Assembly (NCBI GenBank): GCA_030037355.1
Contig: JASHRL010000231.1
Coordinates: forward strand, 1-45,816
Length of the DNA: 45,816 nt
Direction of reading: 5' to 3'
Source of the DNA: Candidatus Acidiferrales bacterium
GTDB lineage: Bacteria; Acidobacteriota; Terriglobia; Acidiferrales; UBA7541
This document shows, piece by piece, positions 1,713-36,351 of this stretch. The notes under the pieces were generated by a model. That model was not told where the DNA came from. It did no database searches and worked only from the letters and a program-made list of their open reading frames with translations. The translations under genes and the position numbers were made by a program. Position 1 is the stretch's first letter, and every line of letters begins with the position of its first letter.

Positions 1713-3240
1713 CTCGCGCGTGATCCACGCCGTGCTGTTTTTCTCAATCTTGGCTTTTCTGAGTGGTTGTTCTTCCACCCGCTCGAAGACCGACGCGAAC
1801 ACAGTCAACTTCCTTCTCGAATCCATGCCCACGAATCTCGATCCGCGCATCAGCACGGATGCGTTCTCCGAGCACGTCGACTATCTTCTCTTCGACAGCC
1901 TCCTGCAGCGAGACGACCATCTCGACCTGGCTCCCGACCTCGCCGAAACCTGGAATATGCCCGACGCGCAAACCTACGTCTTCCATCTCCGCCACGATGT
2001 GCGTTTCTCGAATGGCGAATTGCTCACGTCCGCTGATGTCAAATTCACATTCGACTCCATCATTTCCGGCGCGATTCGCACGCCCAAGCGCGGCGCCTTT
2101 CAGCTCGTCGATTCCATTTCCACACCCGATCCCTGGACGGTTATCTTCCATCTCAGCGCGCCTTACGCATCCTTTCCGCTGAATCTAACTCGCCAAGCTG
2201 CTGGCATTGTGCCGCACGATGCCGGTCCCGATTTCTCGCAGAATCCCATCGGCACCGGCCCATTTCGTTTCGTCAGCATGACGACGGACGAAGACATCGT
2301 GCTCGAACGCAATCCGGATTATTTCGGCGGTGCGCCCATGCTCCAGCGCGTTCGCTTTCGCATTATTCCCGATGCACTCGTGCGCGCGCTCGAACTGCGC
2401 AAAGGCTCCGGCGACCTCGAATCGAATTCGCTCACGCCGGATATGATCGACGCGCTTGGCAAAGACCCAAACTTGGAAGTCGCGCGCGCGCCCGGCACGA
2501 TGCTCGCGTATATTTCCTTCAACTGCGAAGACCCTATCCTGAAGCACCGCCGCGTTCGCCAAGCGCTCGCTTACGCGACCGACCGCGAAACACTGATCCG
2601 ATATTTAATTCGCGGCCTCGCGCGTCCAGCGGATAGTCTTCTCCCGCCGAATCACTGGGCATACGACGGCGATGTCACGCATTACGACTACGATCCCACG
2701 CACGCGAATGCGCTGCTCGACGCCGCTGGCTTCCCACGCGGCCCCGACGGGATTCGCTTTCATCTGGAAATGAAGACGTCAACGGACGAATCCACGCGCA
2801 TCCTCGCAGCCGCTCTCCAAGATCAATGGCACCGCGTCGGCGTGCAACTCGATTTGCGCTCGCTCGAATTCGCCACGTTCTATGCCGACATTACGCGCGG
2901 CAGCTTTCAGCTTTACACTTTGCGCTGGGTCGGCGCGAATCTCGATCCGGACGTTTTCGAGTATGTCTTTGGCAGCGACAAATTTCCGCCCGCGGGCGCA
3001 AATCGTGGCCATTACCATAATCCGCAGTTGGATATCTTACTCGGAGAGGCGCGCGTCACCACAGACCGCGCGAAACGGAAGGCAATCCTTGATCAGATTC
3101 AGCAAATCGTCGCCGACGAAGAGCCGTACATCAACCTCTGGTTCTACGACAACATCTGCGTCCATCGCCGTCGTCTTACTAACATCCAACTCTCACCGGG
3201 CGGCGACTTCGATTTTCTCGAGCACGCGATCCTTCGTTGA
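1696..3240 (+). CDS. ABC transporter substrate-binding lipoprotein, family 5 (peptide/nickel type)
   Basis: The track ORF is 1330..3240, but ATG 1696 gives a lipoprotein signal, [25 protein letters not shown]. The body has SBP_bac_5-like segments (LAPDLAETW..., VRFSNGELLTSADVKFTFD, ERNPDYFGG). No permease or ATPase genes are adjacent. Confidence 0.82.
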   Translation: MPGRVSSRVIHAVLFFSILAFLSGCSSTRSKTDANTVNFLLESMPTNLDPRISTDAFSEHVDYLLFDSLLQRDDHLDLAPDLAETWNMPDAQTYVFHLRHDVRFSNGELLTSADVKFTFDSIISGAIRTPKRGAFQLVDSISTPDPWTVIFHLSAPYASFPLNLTRQAAGIVPHDAGPDFSQNPIGTGPFRFVSMTTDEDIVLERNPDYFGGAPMLQRVRFRIIPDALVRALELRKGSGDLESNSLTPDMIDALGKDPNLEVARAPGTMLAYISFNCEDPILKHRRVRQALAYATDRETLIRYLIRGLARPADSLLPPNHWAYDGDVTHYDYDPTHANALLDAAGFPRGPDGIRFHLEMKTSTDESTRILAAALQDQWHRVGVQLDLRSLEFATFYADITRGSFQLYTLRWVGANLDPDVFEYVFGSDKFPPAGANRGHYHNPQLDILLGEARVTTDRAKRKAILDQIQQIVADEEPYINLWFYDNICVHRRRLTNIQLSPGGDFDFLEHAILR

Positions 3241-22858: not shown

Positions 22859-24676
22859 TTAATGGCGCGCGCTGAGGCTATCAGTTCGTGGCGTTTCAGC
22901 GGCGCTCTTGTCACGCTTCGCGGTCTTTGGTTTATCTGCAGGTTCGACGCGAATCATGCCCATCATTCCTTTGTCTTCGTGCTCGAGAATGTGACAGTGG
23001 TATACAAAATCCCCGACGATATTCGGGTCCCGAAAATCCAGACGTATCCTCACCGACGGATATGCCAGTGCTTTGCCGTCGTAATACGGGACGTTCACCG
23101 TGTCGCGTAGGAACGGCTCATTGACCCTAACGCCCATGTAATCGAGGAGCATGAAATGTAGTTGATGGATGTGAAAGGCGTGCAATTCGCTCGACCGGTT
23201 CTCTATGATCCAATCCTCTACCGTACCCTGTTTCGCGATGATGTTGGGCACACCGGATTTGGGACTGAACGGCTCGGGCTTTTGGCCTTCCACAGTAATA
23301 TAAAACTCTACGGCGCTAGTGGGATCATTTGGATCCAGCAGTTTTTCAGAGAAATACAGTCTCCTCGTGCGGACAGGGGTAACGCTTCCTAGCCAAGCCA
23401 GAGTTGGAGGGGCCAGCGGTTTCGGCGAGGCTGCAAGCCGGGAGGTCGGCTCCGGAGCGTTATCTGAGGCGGTAATTGTCGCAAGGGCTCGATTGGGATC
23501 GTTTTCGCCGCCGGGTCCCGTGTCCACGGTCCGCGTTACCAGGAGTCCCGTCTCGCCAGCAGGCGGTCCGGTGACAATAAACTCCATCCGCGCACCCGGT
23601 GGTATTCCAAGATGCGTCTGCCAGTCGACGAAATCGGTCGGCATTCCCTTGGCGGTGTTCAGCGGAACGCCATCTAGGGCAACAAGACCTAGAGGCTGGG
23701 GCGCGCGGTTGTACAAAACCTCCAAATTAAGATACGTAATCGCCGATGCGTTCAACACCCGCCATAGTTGGCGTTCGCCCGGCCTTATTTCGATCTTCGC
23801 CGGCGGATAGTCCGGGTAGGGCACGGGAACAAAATTGATCGAGATATCCTTTGCCGGCTTCCCAAAGCCGGTCCCCGTATTCGCTGCGTCCCCGTCGCGA
23901 TCATAAAATTGCCGCGGCATCACAGGTTCCGATGCCGCAGGGGGAGCGTTTGGGTTCACCAAATCTTGATCGCGAATGACAAATACCCGCTCGGGCAGGC
24001 CAGCGACTACTTTATCTGCACGCTCGATTCCTTCGACAATGATCGCTCCCGATGCTCCTCCCAACACGTCCATCCTTGTGAATCCATGAATGTGTGGATG
24101 GTACCAATACAACCCCGGCGGCTCGTTCTCTGGGACACGAAATCGGTACTCAAACGGCGGGTCGCCCGCTTGGATCGATGTCTTGAGCACGTCGTCCGCA
24201 TGACATGTTGGAGGTATCGTCATGCCATGAAAATGGAGATTCGTAGATGTCACGGTCATCAATCCGCTCGTGCAAGGGTCGGCATGTTTTCCGCCAGCGG
24301 TCTCCACCTGGTGGACATGCTGCGAGTTTTTGTGCAGCGGGTCGGTCAAGTCATTCTTCAAACGAAGAATGAGCAAATCACCCGGATTCAGTCGCAGCGT
24401 GGGCGACTCGGCGCCGTTGTCGTCGACATAACAATAGCGGACTGAGCCGTCGGCCTCCATCTGGTCGCGGAATGTAAGGTCGACTGTTAGGACGCCATTC
24501 TTGCTCCGCAGGTCTTCCGGGCTTGTAACAACGCTTCCAGCCGGCGGCCGCGGACAACTACTCGAGGGAACATTTTGCGCATGAACACACGCCCAGCCGC
24601 CAGAAAAAAAGAAAACCAAAATCACCAAATGAGAAGAAAAGAATGCCTTCAACCTGGCCTTGTTTACAGACTTCAT
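22859..24676 (-). CDS. multicopper oxidase (three cupredoxin domains)
   Basis: Copper-ligand motifs NLHFHGM, WYHPHIHG, HAFHIHQ and HCHILEHEDKGMMGM. N-terminal signal peptide. Confidence 0.9.
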   Translation of the reverse strand: MKSVNKARLKAFFSSHLVILVFFFSGGWACVHAQNVPSSSCPRPPAGSVVTSPEDLRSKNGVLTVDLTFRDQMEADGSVRYCYVDDNGAESPTLRLNPGDLLILRLKNDLTDPLHKNSQHVHQVETAGGKHADPCTSGLMTVTSTNLHFHGMTIPPTCHADDVLKTSIQAGDPPFEYRFRVPENEPPGLYWYHPHIHGFTRMDVLGGASGAIIVEGIERADKVVAGLPERVFVIRDQDLVNPNAPPAASEPVMPRQFYDRDGDAANTGTGFGKPAKDISINFVPVPYPDYPPAKIEIRPGERQLWRVLNASAITYLNLEVLYNRAPQPLGLVALDGVPLNTAKGMPTDFVDWQTHLGIPPGARMEFIVTGPPAGETGLLVTRTVDTGPGGENDPNRALATITASDNAPEPTSRLAASPKPLAPPTLAWLGSVTPVRTRRLYFSEKLLDPNDPTSAVEFYITVEGQKPEPFSPKSGVPNIIAKQGTVEDWIIENRSSELHAFHIHQLHFMLLDYMGVRVNEPFLRDTVNVPYYDGKALAYPSVRIRLDFRDPNIVGDFVYHCHILEHEDKGMMGMIRVEPADKPKTAKRDKSAAETPRTDSLSARH

Positions 24677-24853: not shown

Positions 24854-25636
24854 TCACATCTTTGTAAGTTCGCGGAGCCTTCTTGTCTGTGCCCGGCTCA
24901 CCGGCACTTCGCTTGCGCGTTTGTCATCCATTTTCAGCATGTAGCTCGATTTGAACCACGGCACGACTTCCTTGATATGGTCGATATTCACCAGATACGA
25001 CCGATGCGCGCGCCAGAACCGCTCCGAGTCCAGCGACGCCTGCAACTCTTCAATCGTTCGGTAATTCGACACGCCTTCTGAGTCGCGCGTAAAAATCGTG
25101 ATCGCGCCGTCCTGTATCGACGCATAAACCAGCTGATCCGCATCCACCAGAAACATTTTCTGCTGCGATTTCAGCAGCAGCTTCACGGGCTTCGCGCTGG
25201 CGACCGCTTTCGGCGCGCCCAGATTCTCGATCAGCGTCTCCAGCCTTTCCACCGGCGACGCATTCGCCTCCACCATCTTCTTCGCGCGCTGCACCGCCTT
25301 CGCCACGCGCCCTTTGTCGAACGGCTTCAGCACGTAATCCACGGCGTTCACTTCAAACGCCTGCACTGCGTATTCATCGAACGCCGTCGCGAAAACGATC
25401 TGCGGCGACTTGATCTTTTTCTCCACCAGCCGCTTGATCACGCCAAATCCATCGAGCCCCGGCATTTGCACGTCCAGAAAAACGAGATCCGGCGCGTGCT
25501 CCTTGATCAAGTTCACCGCGTCCAGCCCGTTTTTCCCCTGCGCGACGATATTGATCTCCGGAAACGCCTTCAGCAGGTACGCGAGCTCCTCCCGCGCCGG
25601 CCGTTCGTCATCGACAATGATCGTGTTTATCGGCAT
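24854..25636 (-). CDS. two-component response regulator, LytR/AlgR family (REC + LytTR)
   Basis: IIVDDERPAREEL...DLVFLDVQMPGLDG (receiver domain). C-terminal LytTR domain (FWRAHRSYLVNIDHIKEV...VPVSR). No histidine kinase gene is adjacent. Confidence 0.9.
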   Translation of the reverse strand: MPINTIIVDDERPAREELAYLLKAFPEINIVAQGKNGLDAVNLIKEHAPDLVFLDVQMPGLDGFGVIKRLVEKKIKSPQIVFATAFDEYAVQAFEVNAVDYVLKPFDKGRVAKAVQRAKKMVEANASPVERLETLIENLGAPKAVASAKPVKLLLKSQQKMFLVDADQLVYASIQDGAITIFTRDSEGVSNYRTIEELQASLDSERFWRAHRSYLVNIDHIKEVVPWFKSSYMLKMDDKRASEVPVSRAQTRRLRELTKM

Positions 25637-29647: not shown

Positions 29648-30511
29648 ATGCGTCGTTTTTGTTTTGTCGCTTTCGCGCTGTCTGCGTTGGTTTTCGCAGC
29701 GATGGCCATCTCTCCGTCAGCCCATGCTGACGACTGGTCCAAGACCTACAAATTCTCTGGCCGCCCGAATCTCCGCGTCACCAGCAACGAGGGCCACGTT
29801 GACCTCTATTCCTCCGCCGACGGCCAAATCGACGCCCATATCACCACGCGTGGCTGGACCATCGGTGATCGCGGCGTCAAAATCACGGAGAGCCAGTCCG
29901 GCAACGACATCAATATCGACGTTCACGTCCCTACGATGCATTTTTCTTTCGGCTGGACCGATCGCTCCGTCCGCATCGAACTCCGCATTCCTCACGAAGC
30001 TGACTTCGATGTCGAAACCGGCGACGGCAGCGTCACCTCCCAGCCATTTCACGGCCAGCTCCGCATCTCCACCGGCGACGGCAACATCGACGCCAATGGC
30101 CTCAAGGGCGACTTGCGTCTCCATTCCGGCGATGGCCGCATCACCGCCAGCGATCTCGATGGCTCGCTTCGCGCCGATTCTGGCGATGGTCACATCGAAG
30201 TTCACGGCCGCTTCGATGTGCTCAGCCTCGAATCCGGCGACGGCGCTGTCGTTGCCGAAGCTGCTTCCGGCTCGAAAATTTCATCTGACTGGTCGCTTCA
30301 CTCCGGCGACGGCAGCATCACTCTGCGCCTTCCCGATGGTCTGAACGCCGATCTCCACGCGCATACCGGCGACGGCCACATCGACCTTGATTTTCCAGTC
30401 ACCGTTCAGGGTTCCATGTCGGGCTCGACCATTCGCGGCAAAATCGGCGCCGGCGGCCCGCCGCTGACGATTCGCACCGGTGACGGCTCGATTCACATCG
30501 AGAAAATGTAA
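29648..30511 (+). CDS. secreted DUF4097-like beta-strand repeat protein (GDG-type repeats)
   Basis: Signal FALSALVFAAMAISPSAHA. Eight (S/T)GDGx(I/V) units roughly 20 aa apart (TGDGSV, TGDGNI, SGDGRI, SGDGHI, SGDGAV, SGDGSI, TGDGHI, TGDGSI). SD AGGAGGA upstream. Confidence 0.75.
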   Translation: MRRFCFVAFALSALVFAAMAISPSAHADDWSKTYKFSGRPNLRVTSNEGHVDLYSSADGQIDAHITTRGWTIGDRGVKITESQSGNDINIDVHVPTMHFSFGWTDRSVRIELRIPHEADFDVETGDGSVTSQPFHGQLRISTGDGNIDANGLKGDLRLHSGDGRITASDLDGSLRADSGDGHIEVHGRFDVLSLESGDGAVVAEAASGSKISSDWSLHSGDGSITLRLPDGLNADLHAHTGDGHIDLDFPVTVQGSMSGSTIRGKIGAGGPPLTIRTGDGSIHIEKM

Positions 30512-30586
30512 CCGTCGCATGATCAAAAAGTGAGTCACACGATTCACGATTTTCGGTTTTTCTGATTCGCAGGCGAGGAGGTTCTC

Positions 30587-31342
30587 ATGCGTAAAGCGGC
30601 TCTGCTTTTCGGAATTCTCTGTTTCGTCGCGCTCGTCTCAGCCATTCGCCCCGCTGCCGCTGACGATTCGCAATCCGATCACGAATGGTCCAAGACTTGG
30701 ACCATCTCGCCGTCCACCCAATTCCATCTCGTCGCCGACCGCGGCAGCATCCACATTACGCAAGGCGCCGCAAATTCCATTCGCGCTGTCGTCACCACGG
30801 AGGGCTGGCGCATCGACTCCTCCGAAGTCTCCATCTCCGATTCGCAGGATTCTCAGCGCCTCGATCTGCAAGTCCCCGCCGGCTCGAATCTCGATCTCGA
30901 GACCGGCTTTGGCGACATCCTCGCCGATCCGCTCCAGGCCCAGCTTCGCGCCAGCACGGGTTTTGGCAACATTCATCTCAGCGGTTATCAAGGCCGTCTC
31001 CGCGCCGATACCGGTTTCGGCGACATGAACGTCGACGGCCATTTCGACGCGTTGATTCTCAAGACCGGCTTCGGCACCATTCGCGCTCAGGCCGATTCCG
31101 GCTCGCGCATCTCCGACGACTGGCGGCTTTCCTCTGGCTTCGGCGACGTTAGCCTCGGTCTGCCCGACGGCCTCAACGCCTATCTTGACGCTCACACCGG
31201 CATGGGCCGCGTTTCTTCCGACCTTCCCATCACTATCGCCGGCTCAATGGAGCATTCTTCCATCCACGGACGCATCGGTTCCGGCGGCCCCAACATCAGC
31301 ATCGAAACCGGCTTCGGCTCCGTGCATCTGAACCACACGTAG
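30587..31342 (+). CDS. secreted DUF4097-like beta-strand repeat protein (GFG-type repeats)
   Basis: Signal LLFGILCFVALVSAIRPAAA. Seven (S/T)G(F/M)Gx(I/V/M) units. Shares the (D/E)WSKT(Y/W) N-terminal motif and the ...GGP(P/N)(L/I)(T/S)I(R/E)TG(D/F)GS(I/V)H(I/L) C-terminus with the preceding gene. SD GAGGAGG upstream. Confidence 0.75.
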   Translation: MRKAALLFGILCFVALVSAIRPAAADDSQSDHEWSKTWTISPSTQFHLVADRGSIHITQGAANSIRAVVTTEGWRIDSSEVSISDSQDSQRLDLQVPAGSNLDLETGFGDILADPLQAQLRASTGFGNIHLSGYQGRLRADTGFGDMNVDGHFDALILKTGFGTIRAQADSGSRISDDWRLSSGFGDVSLGLPDGLNAYLDAHTGMGRVSSDLPITIAGSMEHSSIHGRIGSGGPNISIETGFGSVHLNHT

Positions 31343-31366: not shown

Positions 31367-32842
31367 CTAATTCGCCATCGCGTTCCGCAGTTCCCGCACC
31401 GCTCCGGGTATCTGTTCAACAGGCGTGCTGCCAAAACCGACAATGAATCCTTGCCGCATGGCCTTGCCATAATAAAGCCGCGAGAGCGGCACCAGCGTAA
31501 TCCCCCGCGCCGCCGCGCGCTCCGCAATTTCCCGATCCGAAATTCCCTTTACCATCATGCAGAAGTGCATTCCCGCCTGCGCTCCTCCGATTTCCACCCG
31601 CGCTCCCAATTCCTCTTGTATGCACTGGATCAAAACGCTTCGCCGCTCCGCATACACCGCTCGCATCCGCCGGACATGCCGCGAAAAATGGCCCTCGCGA
31701 ATGAAATCCGCCAGCACCGCCTGATGGAACGTCGCCGGCCCGATGTCCATCGCAAACCGCACGGCGAGAAATCGCTCCACAAGGTCTTCCGGCGCCACAA
31801 TGTATCCCAGCCGTACCGAAGGAAAGAGAACCTTGCTGAACGTTCCGATGTACACCACGCGCGAATTCCGATCCAATCCCTGCAGCGACGTCACCGGCAT
31901 GCTTTCATAGCGGTACTCGCTGTCATAATCATCTTCGATGATCCACGATCGATTGCTTTCCGCCCAATCCAGCAATTGCAGCCGCCGCGACGCGCTCATC
32001 GTCACGCCAAGCGGATACTGATGCGACGGCGTCACAAGCGCTGCTCGCGCGTTGCGGCATTTTTTCACGCCGCTCGCCACGTTCAGCCCTTCTTCATCCA
32101 CGGGAACAGGCACAATCTTGCAGCCGCTGAATTCAAATACGCCCCGCGCATACGCATATCCGGGTTCTTCGATCCATAGGCGGTCTCCCGCATCCAGCAG
32201 CACTCGCGCCGTTATCTCCAGCCCCTGCTGCGAACCGCTCACAATCACAATCTGGCTTGCATCGCACCGCACGCCTCGCGCCGTTCGCAGATGCCCCGCG
32301 ATCGCCTCTCGCAGCTCCTTCAACCCCATTGGATCGCCATAATCGAGCGTTCGCGCACCCGTGCGTCTCGCGTGCCGCGTCACCAGCCTGTTCCAGATTC
32401 GCAGCGGAAAATGCTCAGAGGAGACCTGGCTGGCAAGAAAAGGCCCTAATCCGCGGCCCGCAAAAAAGCGCTCTCTCGCCGGAAGTTTCGCGCATCGCTT
32501 GGAAATTGCCCTTCGCGTGGACGTTCTTTTCGTTGACGTCTCGCGCCCTGCCTGCCCCGCCCCGCTTCTTTCCGGCAGCGATCTCGATACCACCGTGCCC
32601 GACCCCACCCGGCTCTCGAAATATCCCTCCGCCAGCAGTTGCGCGTAAGCATTCAGCACGGGAATTCGCGACACCTGCAGTTCGGCCGCCTGCACGCGGC
32701 TCGACGGCACACGCTGCCCCGCTCGCAAACTCCCTTCCAAAATCGCCTTGCGATAGCCTTCATACACTTGCCGGTAAAGCGATTTCGACGCCTTCCGTGT
32801 AATCGAAATAATCGGCGACGTTATCGAAGGAACTCTCTTCAT
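31367..32842 (-). CDS. MocR-family transcriptional regulator (GntR wHTH + PLP aminotransferase-like domain)
   Basis: SLYRQVYEGYRKAILEGSLRAGQRVPSSRVQAAELQVSRIPVLNAYAQLLAEGY (GntR HTH). PLP-lysine motif IGTFSKVLFPSVRLGY. ATG 32842 is preferred to the track GTG at 32914. Confidence 0.85.
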   Translation of the reverse strand: MKRVPSITSPIISITRKASKSLYRQVYEGYRKAILEGSLRAGQRVPSSRVQAAELQVSRIPVLNAYAQLLAEGYFESRVGSGTVVSRSLPERSGAGQAGRETSTKRTSTRRAISKRCAKLPARERFFAGRGLGPFLASQVSSEHFPLRIWNRLVTRHARRTGARTLDYGDPMGLKELREAIAGHLRTARGVRCDASQIVIVSGSQQGLEITARVLLDAGDRLWIEEPGYAYARGVFEFSGCKIVPVPVDEEGLNVASGVKKCRNARAALVTPSHQYPLGVTMSASRRLQLLDWAESNRSWIIEDDYDSEYRYESMPVTSLQGLDRNSRVVYIGTFSKVLFPSVRLGYIVAPEDLVERFLAVRFAMDIGPATFHQAVLADFIREGHFSRHVRRMRAVYAERRSVLIQCIQEELGARVEIGGAQAGMHFCMMVKGISDREIAERAAARGITLVPLSRLYYGKAMRQGFIVGFGSTPVEQIPGAVRELRNAMAN

Positions 32843-33000
32843 TGGCGCGAAATCATAATGGCTATATCGAATGAGCGTCAAGTGGATATTGCGTATCACC
32901 GCTTTCTCGGGCACTCTGCGTCCGTATGCTTTGGCCGAATCGGTTCTCCTACTTTATCTCTCCGATCTGCCTTCCCAACCTGCAACCCGGAGGATTCTCG

Positions 33001-33297
33001 ATGCGCAAAATTCTGAAAGGAAAAATCAAGCCAGCCTTCGCCGCTCTCGCTCTGCTCGCATCGCTGGCCGTCGTTCCAACCAGCATCGGCGCGCAGGATC
33101 AGTCCATGAACGACATGAAGCCGAAAGGCAAAGTCGTTTACGTCTGCGCTTGCCTGAAAGACAAATCCTGTTCTTGCATGACGGAGGCCAAGACCGAAGG
33201 TCCGTGCTCTTGCGGAACCGAAGACGGGCCGCCGATGAAGGCTGTGTCGAAAGACAGCGCTTGGGCCAAGGCCAATCGCGACGCGCTCGCTCACTGA
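33001..33297 (+). CDS. small secreted cysteine-rich protein (98 aa, three CxC dyads)
   Basis: ATG 33001 is preceded by a GGAGG SD. Signal MRKILKGKIKPAFAALALLASLAVVPTSIGA. The mature part contains VYVCACLKDKSCSCMTEAKTEGPCSCG. Confidence 0.6.
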   Translation: MRKILKGKIKPAFAALALLASLAVVPTSIGAQDQSMNDMKPKGKVVYVCACLKDKSCSCMTEAKTEGPCSCGTEDGPPMKAVSKDSAWAKANRDALAH

Positions 33298-33531
33298 GCC
33301 ATCGCCGTCTGAGCCTTCTTGCTGAACGTTGGACAGTCACATGAGTGCGAGGTCTGATTTGATGCGCAAATCTCTACGCCAGCCGTACGAATCGCCTTCA
33401 CTTGGCGCAACTTCGGCCGCGCTTCCCACGCGCGCAGCCCAATTCTGCGTTTGCCGTACGAAAAGCAATCATTCTGCTCTGCGCCACGCATCCCAGCCGC
33501 GTCTTCGCAGGAGCCTATCGGGAGCGAATCC

Positions 33532-33990
33532 GTGAGCGAAACTCTAAACATCTCCATTTCGCCGTCGCCAGCCGGCGAGACGCCGGCGCTCGAGGAAATT
33601 TCTTCCCAGTCCTCAAAGCTGCCACGGCCCCGTCGCGGCCGGATCGCCATTAAAAACGACGGCAAGATTCTCTTCCTCAATCCCGCCGTTATTCTTACCG
33701 TCGAGGCGCAGGGCAACTACGTCGTCCTCCATCGCGAATCTGGCCCTCTTCGCCTTCGCGAGTCCATCTCTCTGATGGCCGAAAAGCTTTTCGCTTTCGG
33801 ATTCATCCGTATTCATCGTTCCGTGCTTGTCAATCGGTTTTGGGTCGAGGAAATCCGTCCGCTCGTCGCTGGCGATTATCTCCTGCGCCTCACCGGCGGC
33901 AGAGAGCTCACCGTCACGCGCACCTACAAGAAGAATCTCCTCTCGCTCGCCGAACTTTGGCTCACGAATGACAATTTTTCTGCCAACTGA
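33532..33990 (+). CDS. stand-alone LytTR DNA-binding domain protein (no receiver domain)
   Basis: The LytTR core is RIAIKNDGKILFLNPAVILTVEAQGNYVVLH...FIRIHRSVLVNRFWVEEI...LTVTRTYKKNL. GTG 33532 has a GGGAG SD 8 nt upstream. The track start at 33451 is a TTG, so the 5' end is uncertain. Confidence 0.75.
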   Translation: MSETLNISISPSPAGETPALEEISSQSSKLPRPRRGRIAIKNDGKILFLNPAVILTVEAQGNYVVLHRESGPLRLRESISLMAEKLFAFGFIRIHRSVLVNRFWVEEIRPLVAGDYLLRLTGGRELTVTRTYKKNLLSLAELWLTNDNFSAN

Positions 33991-34117
33991 GCATCTCTCC
34001 GCATCTGGCATTTGCAGATGACGCGGCAATTATCCTTTGCGCGCGTCGCTGCATCTCTTTACAGCGCGGGCCATCCCATCTACTCTCACTTTATCTTTAG
34101 TGACAGGAGTCTAGACA

Positions 34118-34948
34118 ATGGCAAACCCCTCGCTCAATAACCCCGTCTGGCGCGAAACTGCGAAAATCTATCTCGGTCACAACGTCTTCGGAGTCGCTGC
34201 CATTCTCTTCGGAATCTTCACTGTGTCTTGGCGTCCCTTTAATCTGTTGCAACAGGCCCAGGCGCTCGGAAGCGCTCCTCATCGCGAGATCCTGATCTAC
34301 CTTGTTGCCGCTATCGAAATCCTCGCAGGTTTGGCGATTCAATGGCCAAAGACGGCGCGCATCGCAGCGGCCGCTCTGGCGATCCTCTTTACGCTTGTCG
34401 CTTTGTCGTGGATACCGGGCATCGTCGCTAAACCGAACGTCTTTTACACCTGGGGAGCAGTCTTCTACGTATTTTCCAAGGCGTCCGGAGCGCTCATCGT
34501 CTATGCCATGTTTGCCCCCGGCGGTTCCCGGTGGGCATCCAGGTTGGCTCGGTTCGCGTGCATCTCCTTCGCCCTCTGCCTGATTTCCTTTGCCATCGAG
34601 CAACTTGAATTTTTCGCCCATACAGCAGAGCTTGTCCCCAAGTGGATACCTCTCGGCCAGAATTTCTGGGCCATCGCCACCACGATTGCTTTTTTTCTCG
34701 CCGCCATCGCCCTGCTCTCCGGACGGGTCGCCCTTCTCGCTTCTCGCTTGACCACCGCGATGCTCATCGGCTTCGGCGTGCTGATCTGGGTGCCCGTGTG
34801 TTTTGGAAATGTTCATAACCTGTACAATTGGTCCGAGAACTTGGACAATCTGGCGATCGCCGGCGCGGCATGGATCGTCGCTGACTTTCTTAGCCAATCC
34901 CGCTCGGGCAATAGATCTCCCGCAGCATCGGACGCCCTCCCCACATGA
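34118..34948 (+). CDS. polytopic membrane protein (~8 TM), paralogue 1 (DoxX-like features)
   Basis: 276 aa and highly hydrophobic. An AGGAG SD lies 9 nt upstream of the ATG. The second half, ARFACISFALCLISFAIEQLEFF...LVPKWIPLGQNFWAI, is homologous to the next gene. Confidence 0.7.
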   Translation: MANPSLNNPVWRETAKIYLGHNVFGVAAILFGIFTVSWRPFNLLQQAQALGSAPHREILIYLVAAIEILAGLAIQWPKTARIAAAALAILFTLVALSWIPGIVAKPNVFYTWGAVFYVFSKASGALIVYAMFAPGGSRWASRLARFACISFALCLISFAIEQLEFFAHTAELVPKWIPLGQNFWAIATTIAFFLAAIALLSGRVALLASRLTTAMLIGFGVLIWVPVCFGNVHNLYNWSENLDNLAIAGAAWIVADFLSQSRSGNRSPAASDALPT

Positions 34949-35766
34949 CGGCTGAAACTTCTCTGGACAAAACGATTGCAGCTATCCTGCGCCTCGGTCG
35001 CCCCATCTACGCGCTCGCCATCGCCGGACTCGGCATCGAAACCATCGTCTACGCACACACTTCGGTTTTCCTGTATCCCTTGGCCGTTCATCCGCGCTTC
35101 CCCGCAATCTCCGTTCTGCCTTTCCTGCCGCCGATTCCTTCGCTCGCTTATGTCTTCGGAATCGTCATGGCTTTGCTCGGCTTCGGTCTTCTGTTCTGGC
35201 AAACGCTTCGCACCTCCGCGCTCGCGCTGGGGACTCTCCTCTTCCTCGCCACGCTCATTCTCGACGCTCCTCGCAACGCCGCTATCCCCGGCAGCATGGG
35301 CCTGCGCACCATCGTCTTCGAACCTCTCGCCATGGCTTGTATCGCCTGGCTTCTTCCCGGCGCAGGCCAGATTCCTGCCGGCCTCGAACGTTTCGCTCGT
35401 TATCTCCTCGCCATTTCATTCGCCGTTTTCGGCGTGGACCACTTCCTGGCTCTCGCTCCCATCGGCACGCTGATTCCCGGCTGGATCCCCTGGCACGTTT
35501 TCTGGATCGCCTTTTTCGGCGCCGGATTCATCGCCACCGGCATCAGTCTTGCCTTCAACATTCTCGTGCGCTGGAGCACAGCCTGTCTCGGCCTCATGTA
35601 CATGATTTGGGTCCTCACGCTCCATCTGCCTTCTGTCCTCGGCTTCTACGTCATCGCCGGCCGCACGAATCCCGTCTCCCTCATGTCCAGTTTTCTCATT
35701 GCCGTCTCTCTCTGGGGAGGCTCCTGGGCTCTCGCGCGTTCCCAGACGCGCCGTTTATCTGCGTAG
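34945..35766 (+). CDS. polytopic membrane protein (~8 TM), paralogue 2
   Basis: The start overlaps the upstream stop (ATGA at 34945-34948). ERFARYLLAISFAVFGVDHFLAL...LIPGWIPWHVFWIAFF aligns with paralogue 1. Confidence 0.7.
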   Translation: MTAETSLDKTIAAILRLGRPIYALAIAGLGIETIVYAHTSVFLYPLAVHPRFPAISVLPFLPPIPSLAYVFGIVMALLGFGLLFWQTLRTSALALGTLLFLATLILDAPRNAAIPGSMGLRTIVFEPLAMACIAWLLPGAGQIPAGLERFARYLLAISFAVFGVDHFLALAPIGTLIPGWIPWHVFWIAFFGAGFIATGISLAFNILVRWSTACLGLMYMIWVLTLHLPSVLGFYVIAGRTNPVSLMSSFLIAVSLWGGSWALARSQTRRLSA

Positions 35767-35949: not shown

Positions 35950-36351
35950 ATGACCAGGTCCAAATATCTCTTGCTGGCTGCTTTGGCTGGAATCTGCTTC
36001 ACGCTTGCGGCTCCGAAAGCTCAGGCGCAGGTCACCGTAAACATCGGGCCTGCTCCTGTTTGTCCTTATGGCTATTTCGACTATGCGCCGTACGCCTGCG
36101 CTCCCTACGGCTATTACGGTCCGGAATGGTTCGTCGGTGGCGTCTTCATCGGAGCTGGCCCTTGGTTTCACGGTCCTCACAATTTTCATGGCACCGTGAA
36201 TAACCATTATGATCCGCACCACGGCTATAAGGGCCCCACGCCCCGCCGCAACCAAAAACCCAGTCCGAACATGCACCCTGAACGCGCGAAGAACTTCAAA
36301 GGCAATGAAACGCGCGACGGCCGCGGCCACACCGTCGCTCCGCATCGCTAG
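35950..36351 (+). CDS. small secreted Gly/Tyr/Pro/His-rich protein (133 aa)
   Basis: ATG 35950 has a GAGGAG SD 8 nt upstream. Signal MTRSKYLLLAALAGICFTLAAPKAQA. The mature part is GPAPVCPYGYFDYAPYACAPYGYYGPEWFVGG...HGPHNFHG...HYDPHHGYKG. Confidence 0.6.
   Translation: MTRSKYLLLAALAGICFTLAAPKAQAQVTVNIGPAPVCPYGYFDYAPYACAPYGYYGPEWFVGGVFIGAGPWFHGPHNFHGTVNNHYDPHHGYKGPTPRRNQKPSPNMHPERAKNFKGNETRDGRGHTVAPHR

Follow-up and report, generated by a model that had tools for sequence, protein, structure and literature searches.

A receiver-less LytTR regulator and paired DoxX-like membrane proteins as candidate members of a MocR divergon in Acidobacteriota

The 45,816-nt stretch of DNA analyzed here (the window; contig JASHRL010000231.1 of assembly GCA_030037355.1) belongs to a genome of Acidobacteriota, and its closest database proteins come from Candidatus Acidiferrales/Acidoferrales metagenome-assembled genomes. 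At positions 33532–35766 of its forward strand lie a gene for a LytTR transcription factor that has no receiver domain and two genes, designated memA and memB, for polytopic membrane proteins. An earlier note, made from the window sequence, had taken this arrangement for an analog of the LytTR regulatory systems (LRS), in which a membrane protein holds the regulator inactive. Comparison with related loci leads us to favor, with confidence a little better than even, a different reading: the locus would be the distal part of a divergon of a MocR-type regulator, with a Cys-rich secreted protein, a stand-alone LytTR factor and a DoxX-like pair as its cargo, and the LytTR/DoxX adjacency would reflect shared membership in one regulon. 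MocR is the constant divergent partner in loci of this type and is accompanied by a conserved operator; co-regulation can therefore explain the linkage. The locus should not be filed as an LRS.

In the proposed mechanism, the MocR-type regulator (31367–32842, minus strand) would be transcribed divergently from the genes of the small Cys-rich protein, LytTR, memA and memB; it would bind an operator at 32852–32906, repress its own promoter and control the divergent genes. The MocR-proximal promoter would drive the window cargo across gaps of 234 nt before the LytTR gene and 127 nt before memA. The LytTR protein, as alignments show, descends from a two-component response regulator of the LytS/LytR type with a decayed receiver, and its activity would be set by its expression level, i.e. 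by MocR, and not by phosphorylation. The memA and memB products would be co-regulated effectors rather than anti-regulators of LytTR.

For synteny around the membrane genes, loci encoding memA homologs at 75–78% identity were compared with BLAST and hidden Markov models (HMMs); comparison loci are numbered with the prefix L. These loci are of a recurrent type with a MocR gene on the strand opposite to the cargo genes. The cargo varies, with the small Cys-rich secreted protein, a DUF1440-like membrane protein, LytTR and two DoxX-like genes present in some combination. In all orthologous loci, with or without LytTR, the MocR gene is transcribed away from the membrane genes, and its orthologs in related loci are 57–83% identical. 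The LytTR gene was found in only three of ~10 lineages that carry the memA/memB pair (the window together with L008; L012/L013; and L014), the pair being without LytTR in L001/L015, L009/L016, L010, L017, L021, L024 and L027. L010 is the closest sampled relative of the locus (83% identity for MocR, 88% for the small protein and 82% for memB), and a tblastn search detected neither LytTR nor a remnant of it there.

A memB profile scan with one genome per species produced 80 loci. The memB genes in these loci mostly stand alone, and an HMM search found an adjacent LytTR gene in none of the 80; the sensitivity of the LytTR HMM is adequate, as even another LytTR domain of the window, just 23% identical, is picked up. 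A LytTR gene directly 5′ of a DoxX-like gene recurs in three independent lineages. The earlier note had held that lack of synteny between the membrane genes and LytTR in related genomes would speak against its proposal, and such a lack is largely what we observed, with the pair occurring without LytTR in ~7 of 10 loci.

The MocR-type regulator combines a GntR winged helix-turn-helix (wHTH) domain with a class I/II aminotransferase-like domain (Pfam GntR, 8e-12; Aminotran_1_2, 1.8e-25). Its start is most likely the ATG at 32842–32840 (MKR...), the position at which homologs begin, and not the GTG at 32914; the 24 extra codons (32843–32914) of the longest open reading frame (ORF) are considered non-coding because they overlap a conserved operator/promoter block. 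This block, ~55 nt in length (32852–32906, plus strand), was delineated in an alignment of 14 loci. In the window it reads ATCATAATGGCTATAT-N9-GTCAAGTGGATATTG-N7-CACCGCTTTC and contains two 9-bp direct boxes, AATGGCTAT (32857–32865) and AGTGGATAT (32881–32889), placed 24 bp center to center, along with an inverted CCACTT-like element, CCGCTT (32899–32904). A minus-strand sigma70-like promoter overlaps the block, with TTGACG (32881–32876) and TATGAT (32857–32852) separated by 18 nt. The −10 hexamer is just 10 nt from the MocR ATG, so the mocR mRNA may be leaderless or nearly so.

We consider the block to be probably the operator of a MocR regulon, since its architecture matches the commonest type of MocR motif, a pair of direct boxes plus a single inverted box, with two to three helical turns between the members of the pair (PMC5320631). 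In 28 loci the distance between the block and the MocR start is 13–30 nt. A degenerate pattern of it gave 46 matches in 1.94 Mb of loci, all oriented with the downstream gene, vs ~1 match expected by an information-content estimate (no shuffle control). A position weight matrix (PWM) built from 36 unique sites picked out a single site in the 45.8-kb window, with a score of 63.9 vs −4.5 for the next best.

Across dozens of Acidobacteriota loci, the block is again found ahead of genes for memB, memA, the small protein and receiver-less LytTR. It is situated 60–250 nt upstream of stand-alone memB genes in at least 12 loci with neither MocR nor LytTR nearby (examples are L029, L032, L033, L053, L063, L075–L077, L081, L082 and L087), and upstream of receiver-less LytTR genes in L150, L163, L171, L177 and L178. 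Second copies occur directly before LytTR in L012 (4467–4516) and L014 (4471–4520), ~50–70 nt upstream of the start codon; the one in L014 is ~225 nt from the MocR-proximal copy. These second copies suggest that the LytTR gene was relocated along with an operator of its own. A pattern scan of the fetched loci did not find the block at histidine kinase–response regulator operons of the same LytTR clade.

The LytTR gene (33532–33990, plus strand) encodes a protein of 152 aa with a disordered N-terminus of ~45 aa, a LytTR domain and a C-terminal helix. GTG at 33532 is the likely start, because GGGAG is found 7 nt upstream and a 98%-identical protein, P0121 (152 aa), starts there; an alternative in-frame TTG at 33451 would give a 179-aa form. 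The distance to the preceding gene is 153–234 nt. The search with PF04397, also proposed in the earlier note, matched the LytTR model above the curated threshold (61.9 bits vs the 22.6-bit cut-off, E = 7e-17), over model positions 2–95 of 98 and residues 72–165 of the 179-aa form, and no Response_reg (receiver) domain was matched by Pfam in this protein. The description of the ORF as a complete LytTR domain behind a short N-terminus, with no receiver, was therefore correct. The nearest relatives, in L012, L014 and P0121, likewise have no receiver.

An AlphaFold2 (AF2) model made with 26 homologs agrees with this domain layout: the N-terminal 60 residues are disordered (predicted local distance difference test score, pLDDT, 45–55) and the LytTR fold is confident (pLDDT 84–94 over residues 61–160). 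The model superposes on AgrA, ComE and 3d6w with target TM-scores of ~0.78–0.80; Foldseek matched it to 3d6w, 4xqj, 3bs1 and 4cbv with probability 1.00 and target TM-scores of 0.76–0.80. Purifying selection on the LytTR domain is strong. All 20 invariant residues of the LytTR clade are kept in the alignment of the window protein, and dN/dS is ~0.05 between the L012 and L014 orthologs. The last 26 codons show six synonymous and no non-synonymous changes relative to L008, the closest strain (proteins 96–98% identical), which served as the reference for the spacer and substitution comparisons.

Among the 120 best LytTR homologs, used to count receivers, 66 had no receiver and 54 had one. In several receiver-less proteins a short N-terminal stretch aligns to the receiver N-terminus, ~70 core residues are gone and the alignment resumes near the ‘KPF’ region. 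By these aligned remnants the receiver-less clade is shown, at the level of alignment, to consist of response regulators whose receiver was deleted or decayed. Receiver-bearing relatives, ~50% identical, are located directly downstream of PF06580 histidine kinases.

Neighbor contexts were inspected for 15 receiver-less LytTR loci. MocR, intact or as a fragment, adjoins nine of them, and a DoxX-like gene adjoins six (the window, L012, L014, L135, L150 and L168); several have neither neighbor. The gene of receiver-less P0161 has a carbonic anhydrase gene on one side and a hydrolase gene on the other; P0123 and P0125 are isolated. With loci sampled independently of the window and neighbors counted within 4 kb, MocR was found near 6 of 12 receiver-less vs 6 of 63 receiver-bearing genes (Fisher p = 0.003) and a DoxX-like gene near 4 of 12 vs 1 of 63 (Fisher p = 0.002), p-values that are indicative only, given small samples and phylogenetically non-independent loci. 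The enrichment of receiver-less LytTR genes near MocR counts in favor of the divergon. MocR/DoxX-linked receiver-less copies fall in at least three sequence clusters of a neighbor-joining tree of LytTR domains, which is poorly resolved (58–70% identity throughout) and was used for the cluster count only. The receiver-bearing genes in L112, L119 and L123 also neighbor memB, MocR or DUF1440-like genes; the linkage is therefore older than receiver loss.

Operons of PF06580 kinases and their regulators (L097, L100, L105, L113, L160 and others) are recurrently flanked by DUF1223 (CxxC) genes and also by genes for outer-membrane proteins of the CarboxypepD_reg/TonB type, ~1150–1230 aa in length; some receiver-less copies (L168, L110, L178) retain DUF1223/TonB-type neighbors. 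The window itself holds a second, complete response regulator with receiver and LytTR domains (24854–25636, minus strand), adjoining a multicopper oxidase gene (22859–24676, minus strand). With only 24% identity, this regulator was ruled out as the source of the receiver-less copy.

The two membrane genes are organized as the earlier note had read them. The first, memA (34118–34948, plus strand), begins 127 nt downstream of the LytTR gene and encodes a DoxX-like membrane protein of 276 aa with eight transmembrane helices (8-TM). The second, memB (34945–35766, plus strand; 273 aa), has its start overlapping the memA stop (ATGA). That the two proteins are paralogs was borne out, although they are distant ones: BLASTP gave 25% identity with E = 4e-6, and profile–profile comparison (hhalign) gave 97.8% probability with E = 9e-13 over 235 columns. 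The eight helices predicted by the note are seen in the memA AF2 model as eight long helices (pLDDT 69). Alignment of the N-terminal half of memA with its C-terminal half, as for a 4+4 duplication, reached E = 0.011 over just 35 columns with hhalign.

Likeness to DoxX, also suggested by the note, is clear for memA at the family level and weak for memB. Pfam DoxX was matched by 29 of 30 memA homologs (best 4.8e-9), while the window memA itself scored 17.1 bits against DoxX (PF07681), below the 23.6-bit gathering score; memB has no DoxX match of its own, and 12 of 27 of its homologs match weakly (best 0.003). Pfam assigned neither membrane protein to DUF3021 or DUF2154, and NCBIfam had no match for memA, memB or the small Cys-rich protein. 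Both families are large, conserved and mostly stand-alone. The memA homologs number >1100, mostly from Acidobacteriota, with the JGI label ‘YphA (DoxX/SURF4 family)’; the 446 memB homologs share invariant D165, H166, H184, H227, E126 and R121.

In the pair loci memA and memB are always adjacent, and they are paired in ~8 lineages with an order that is inverted between close relatives: memA–memB in the window, L001, L017 and L021, and memB–memA, opposite to the window, in L009, L010 and L016. The ATGA overlap is present in the memA–memB loci examined for it, namely the window, L008 and L001–L003; the memB–memA loci examined (L009, L010, L012 and L014) have gaps of ~15–70 nt instead. This constant pairing suggests that the two proteins work together. 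Given the pairing in either order, the family membership and the conserved polar/His residues, memA and memB likely work as a hetero-pair. By analogy with DoxX proteins, and in view of the invariant polar/His residues, they may be regarded as effector genes with a function of their own, probably related to envelope redox or quinones. LytTR is followed in L012 (at 14 nt) and L014 (at 27 nt) by a second memA-type paralog and not by memB. A literature search for papers on DoxX together with LytTR returned nothing relevant.

The 127-nt spacer between LytTR and memA (33991–34117, plus strand) does contain the features pointed out in the earlier note, three GCATCT hexamers (33991, 34001 and 34051) and a short CATCTG-N7-CAGATG hairpin; their significance did not withstand comparison. 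GCATCT is not enriched in the window (26 occurrences vs 30 expected). In L008 two of the three hexamers are mutated (to GCATTT and GCCTCT) and both hairpin arms are altered with no compensation. The spacer differs from that of L008 at 7 of 127 positions, approximately the fourfold-degenerate rate of memA (10/153) and memB (4/174). Because of these uncompensated mutations and the neutral rate at which the spacer evolves, the GCATCT motifs and hairpin are treated as chance occurrences; no conserved element was detected in the spacer. When scanned, neither the spacer nor the region upstream of LytTR yielded a sigma70-like promoter or an intrinsic terminator. As a separate observation, the spacer RNA (33985–34120, plus strand) is more stable than its shuffles (z = −2.8); the fold centers on a GC-rich stem, GACGCGGCAA...UUGCGCGCGUC, without U-tract or terminator features.

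The switch envisaged in the earlier note would have the DoxX-like protein or proteins hold the receiver-less LytTR at the membrane until a signal frees it to activate transcription, including that of its own operon. The known LRS (HdrRM, BrsRM and relatives; Zou et al. 2018) consist of a receiver-less LytTR regulator and a co-transcribed membrane inhibitor, often of DUF3021 or DUF2154; their hallmark is autoregulation with 9-bp direct repeats, 11–13 bp apart, located ~10 bp upstream of the operon −35 element (PMC6193735). The window, L012 and L014 have a receiver-less LytTR gene directly upstream of co-oriented membrane genes (127, 14 and 27 nt); in L135 and L168 the membrane gene is upstream of LytTR, which resembles the Bacteroides LRS-like order (PMC6193735), and receiver loss correlates with a DoxX-like neighbor (4/12 vs 1/63). 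That the membrane proteins here are outside DUF3021 and DUF2154 argues against such a switch, although LRS membrane partners are non-homologous between types (PMC6193735). The partner changes within our set, from memA in the window to the second memA-type paralog in L012 and L014; the clade members P0122, P0123, P0125, P0161 and L110 have no membrane neighbor; and the linkage predates receiver loss, as L112, L119 and L123 indicate. Co-inheritance, as expected of an LRS, was not observed: LytTR adjoins memB in 0 of 80 loci and the pair in 3 of ~10 (leaving ~7 of 10 pair loci without it), and a DoxX-like gene is beside 6 of 15 receiver-less LytTR genes. Invariant polar/His residues are what would be expected of proteins with a function of their own. 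We found no LRS-type repeats (up to two mismatches) in 33298–33560, 33985–34120 or 32843–33005, that is, upstream of LytTR, memA or the operon, where chance alone would give 0.4–1, and no LRS-type repeat motif common across loci; the only conserved repeats at the locus have a 15-nt spacer and are present also in loci without LytTR. The spacer motifs are not conserved either. The correlation of receiver loss with a DoxX-like neighbor still speaks for the tethered switch, which we consider unlikely. A mixed scheme, in which LytTR, after loss of receiver and kinase, came under post-translational control by a redox- or quinone-sensing DoxX-like pair, layered under MocR, seems to us a doubtful prospect and somewhat less probable than the plain switch.

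A rival assignment of the block itself makes it the binding site of a LytTR-clade regulator, with or without receiver; LytTR would then be the master of memA, memB, the small-protein gene and mocR, with MocR as a target or co-regulator. The block does have 9-bp direct repeats, and LytTR genes in L012, L014 and L177 have copies immediately before them; the reverse complement TCCACTTGA and a third box ACCACTTT (L163, L168 and L014) resemble the LRS half-site ACCACTTA. The center-to-center distance, however, is 24 bp vs the 20–22 bp typical of LytTR sites (PMC6193735), and the architecture fits MocR (PMC5320631). The block is also well conserved in loci or contigs with no LytTR nearby, fixed at the mocR promoter and absent from the kinase–regulator operons, and their neighbors, in the same LytTR clade; we regard this assignment as improbable, to about the same degree as the mixed scheme. 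Yet another possibility is that the LytTR gene is an unrelated passenger or a decaying, truncated response regulator inserted by local rearrangement. Its patchy presence, the LytTR-less L010 locus, the decayed receiver and a frameshifted LytTR fragment near the locus in L023 would all fit. A passenger, though, would hardly keep an intact ORF behind a good Shine-Dalgarno sequence, the full set of 20 invariant clade residues and a confident fold, show six synonymous and no non-synonymous changes against L008 and a dN/dS of ~0.05 between L012 and L014, and be linked recurrently to MocR and its operator in at least three sequence clusters. We give this possibility the lowest probability of those weighed here.

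Several observations weigh against the MocR divergon as well. The sole box in the window is 680 nt upstream of the LytTR start, and the PWM found none before LytTR or memA. Gaps of 234 and 127 nt precede these genes, so that co-transcription from the MocR-proximal promoter is presumptive, and the scan found no sigma70-like promoter in either gap. The resemblance of TCCACTTGA to ACCACTTA means that a LytTR-clade protein could bind the block, and the enrichment p-values, as said, are indicative only. Foldseek of the memA model against PDB gave nothing better than E = 0.1 and TM 0.35, i.e. no solved relative.

In the window, as in many relatives, the first gene divergent from mocR (33001–33297, plus strand) encodes the small secreted Cys-rich protein of 98 aa with a signal peptide; GGAGGA is located 6 nt before its ATG. 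Its sequence has the motifs CAC...CSC...CSC with conserved KGKVVYVCACLK.KSCSCMTEAKTEGPCSCGTE (three CxC pairs), and a possible role is metal or redox binding in the periplasm. L009, L010 and L012 have orthologs with 64–88% identity at this position, and HMM matches were found in L016, L017, L021–L024 and L027; Pfam had no matching family. Two tandem genes for secreted DUF4097 (‘toastrack’) proteins are located upstream of mocR (29648–31342, plus strand), and the pair is syntenic in L009 and L010. Downstream of memB there is a gene for a secreted Tyr/Gly/Pro-rich protein of 133 aa (...VCPYGYFDYAPYACAPYGYYGPEWF...; 35950–36351, plus strand), which is kept in L008, absent from L010 and gave no family match. 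Other MAGs show signs of decay in this locus type: the LytTR fragment of L023 lies beyond MocR (2231–2542, minus strand), and the MocR genes of L009 (1458–3036, minus strand) and L022 are broken up over several frames; assembly errors are possible in these cases.

Both MocR divergons and stand-alone LytTR factors are known kinds of systems; the Acidobacteriota setting and the cargo are unstudied. Acidobacteriota are abundant in soil and have seen very little experimental genetics. If the divergon model is true, the locus belongs to a previously undescribed MocR regulon in Acidobacteriota with an operator usable for regulon reconstruction, and it provides an example of a response regulator that turned stand-alone and was rewired under another regulator after receiver loss. 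It would also point to conditions, a PLP (pyridoxal 5′-phosphate)-linked effector and envelope redox, under which the large ‘YphA/DoxX-like’ 8-TM family could be studied. Were the mixed scheme true instead, a DoxX-gated LytTR would add a new class to the LytTR regulatory systems, and one from a diderm phylum. In either case caution is in order, as a receiver-less LytTR gene beside a membrane gene is by itself insufficient to call an LRS.

Compared with known systems, the locus resembles LRS in having a soluble receiver-less LytTR protein of ~150 aa encoded beside, and co-oriented with, polytopic membrane genes that have no recognizable enzymatic domain. Unlike in LRS, the membrane proteins are DoxX-like 8-TM paralogs that are usually found without the regulator, and the locus is dominated by MocR, a second regulator that has a conserved operator of its own. 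With respect to LytS/LytR (YehU/YehT-type systems with PF06580 kinases), the LytTR domain is ~60–66% identical to that of acidobacterial regulators with receiver and LytTR domains, and the C-terminal helix is common to both; the window protein differs in having no receiver, phospho-acceptor or adjacent kinase, with faint receiver remnants in some paralogs only.

DoxX is part of the DoxX–SseA–SodA thiol oxidoreductase complex of Mycobacterium tuberculosis, and DoxX operons belong to the RpoE2 regulon of Haemophilus influenzae and the SigE regulon of Neisseria, both governed by envelope oxidative-stress regulators (PMC7907618). The present family shares with it Pfam DoxX similarity in the N-terminal four helices and, putatively, a dedicated stress or metabolite regulator. 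It differs in having eight vs ~four helices, two divergent paralogs in tandem and no adjacent partner enzymes.

There are parallels with MocR divergons such as GabR–gabTD and PdxR–pdxST (Suvorova and Rodionov 2016, PMC5320631), where MocR factors usually autorepress and activate divergent targets. A full-text literature search found no papers naming both ‘DoxX’ and ‘MocR’. The cargo here is not that of PLP, γ-aminobutyric acid (GABA) or taurine metabolism; it comprises a Cys-rich protein, DoxX-like proteins, a second transcription factor and sometimes a DUF1440-like protein. The likeness lies in a regulator divergent from its presumed targets, a GntR wHTH and an aminotransferase-like domain in one protein, and a multi-box operator common to the regulator promoter and the targets; as in MocR regulons, the same motif is also found upstream of remote members, here memB.

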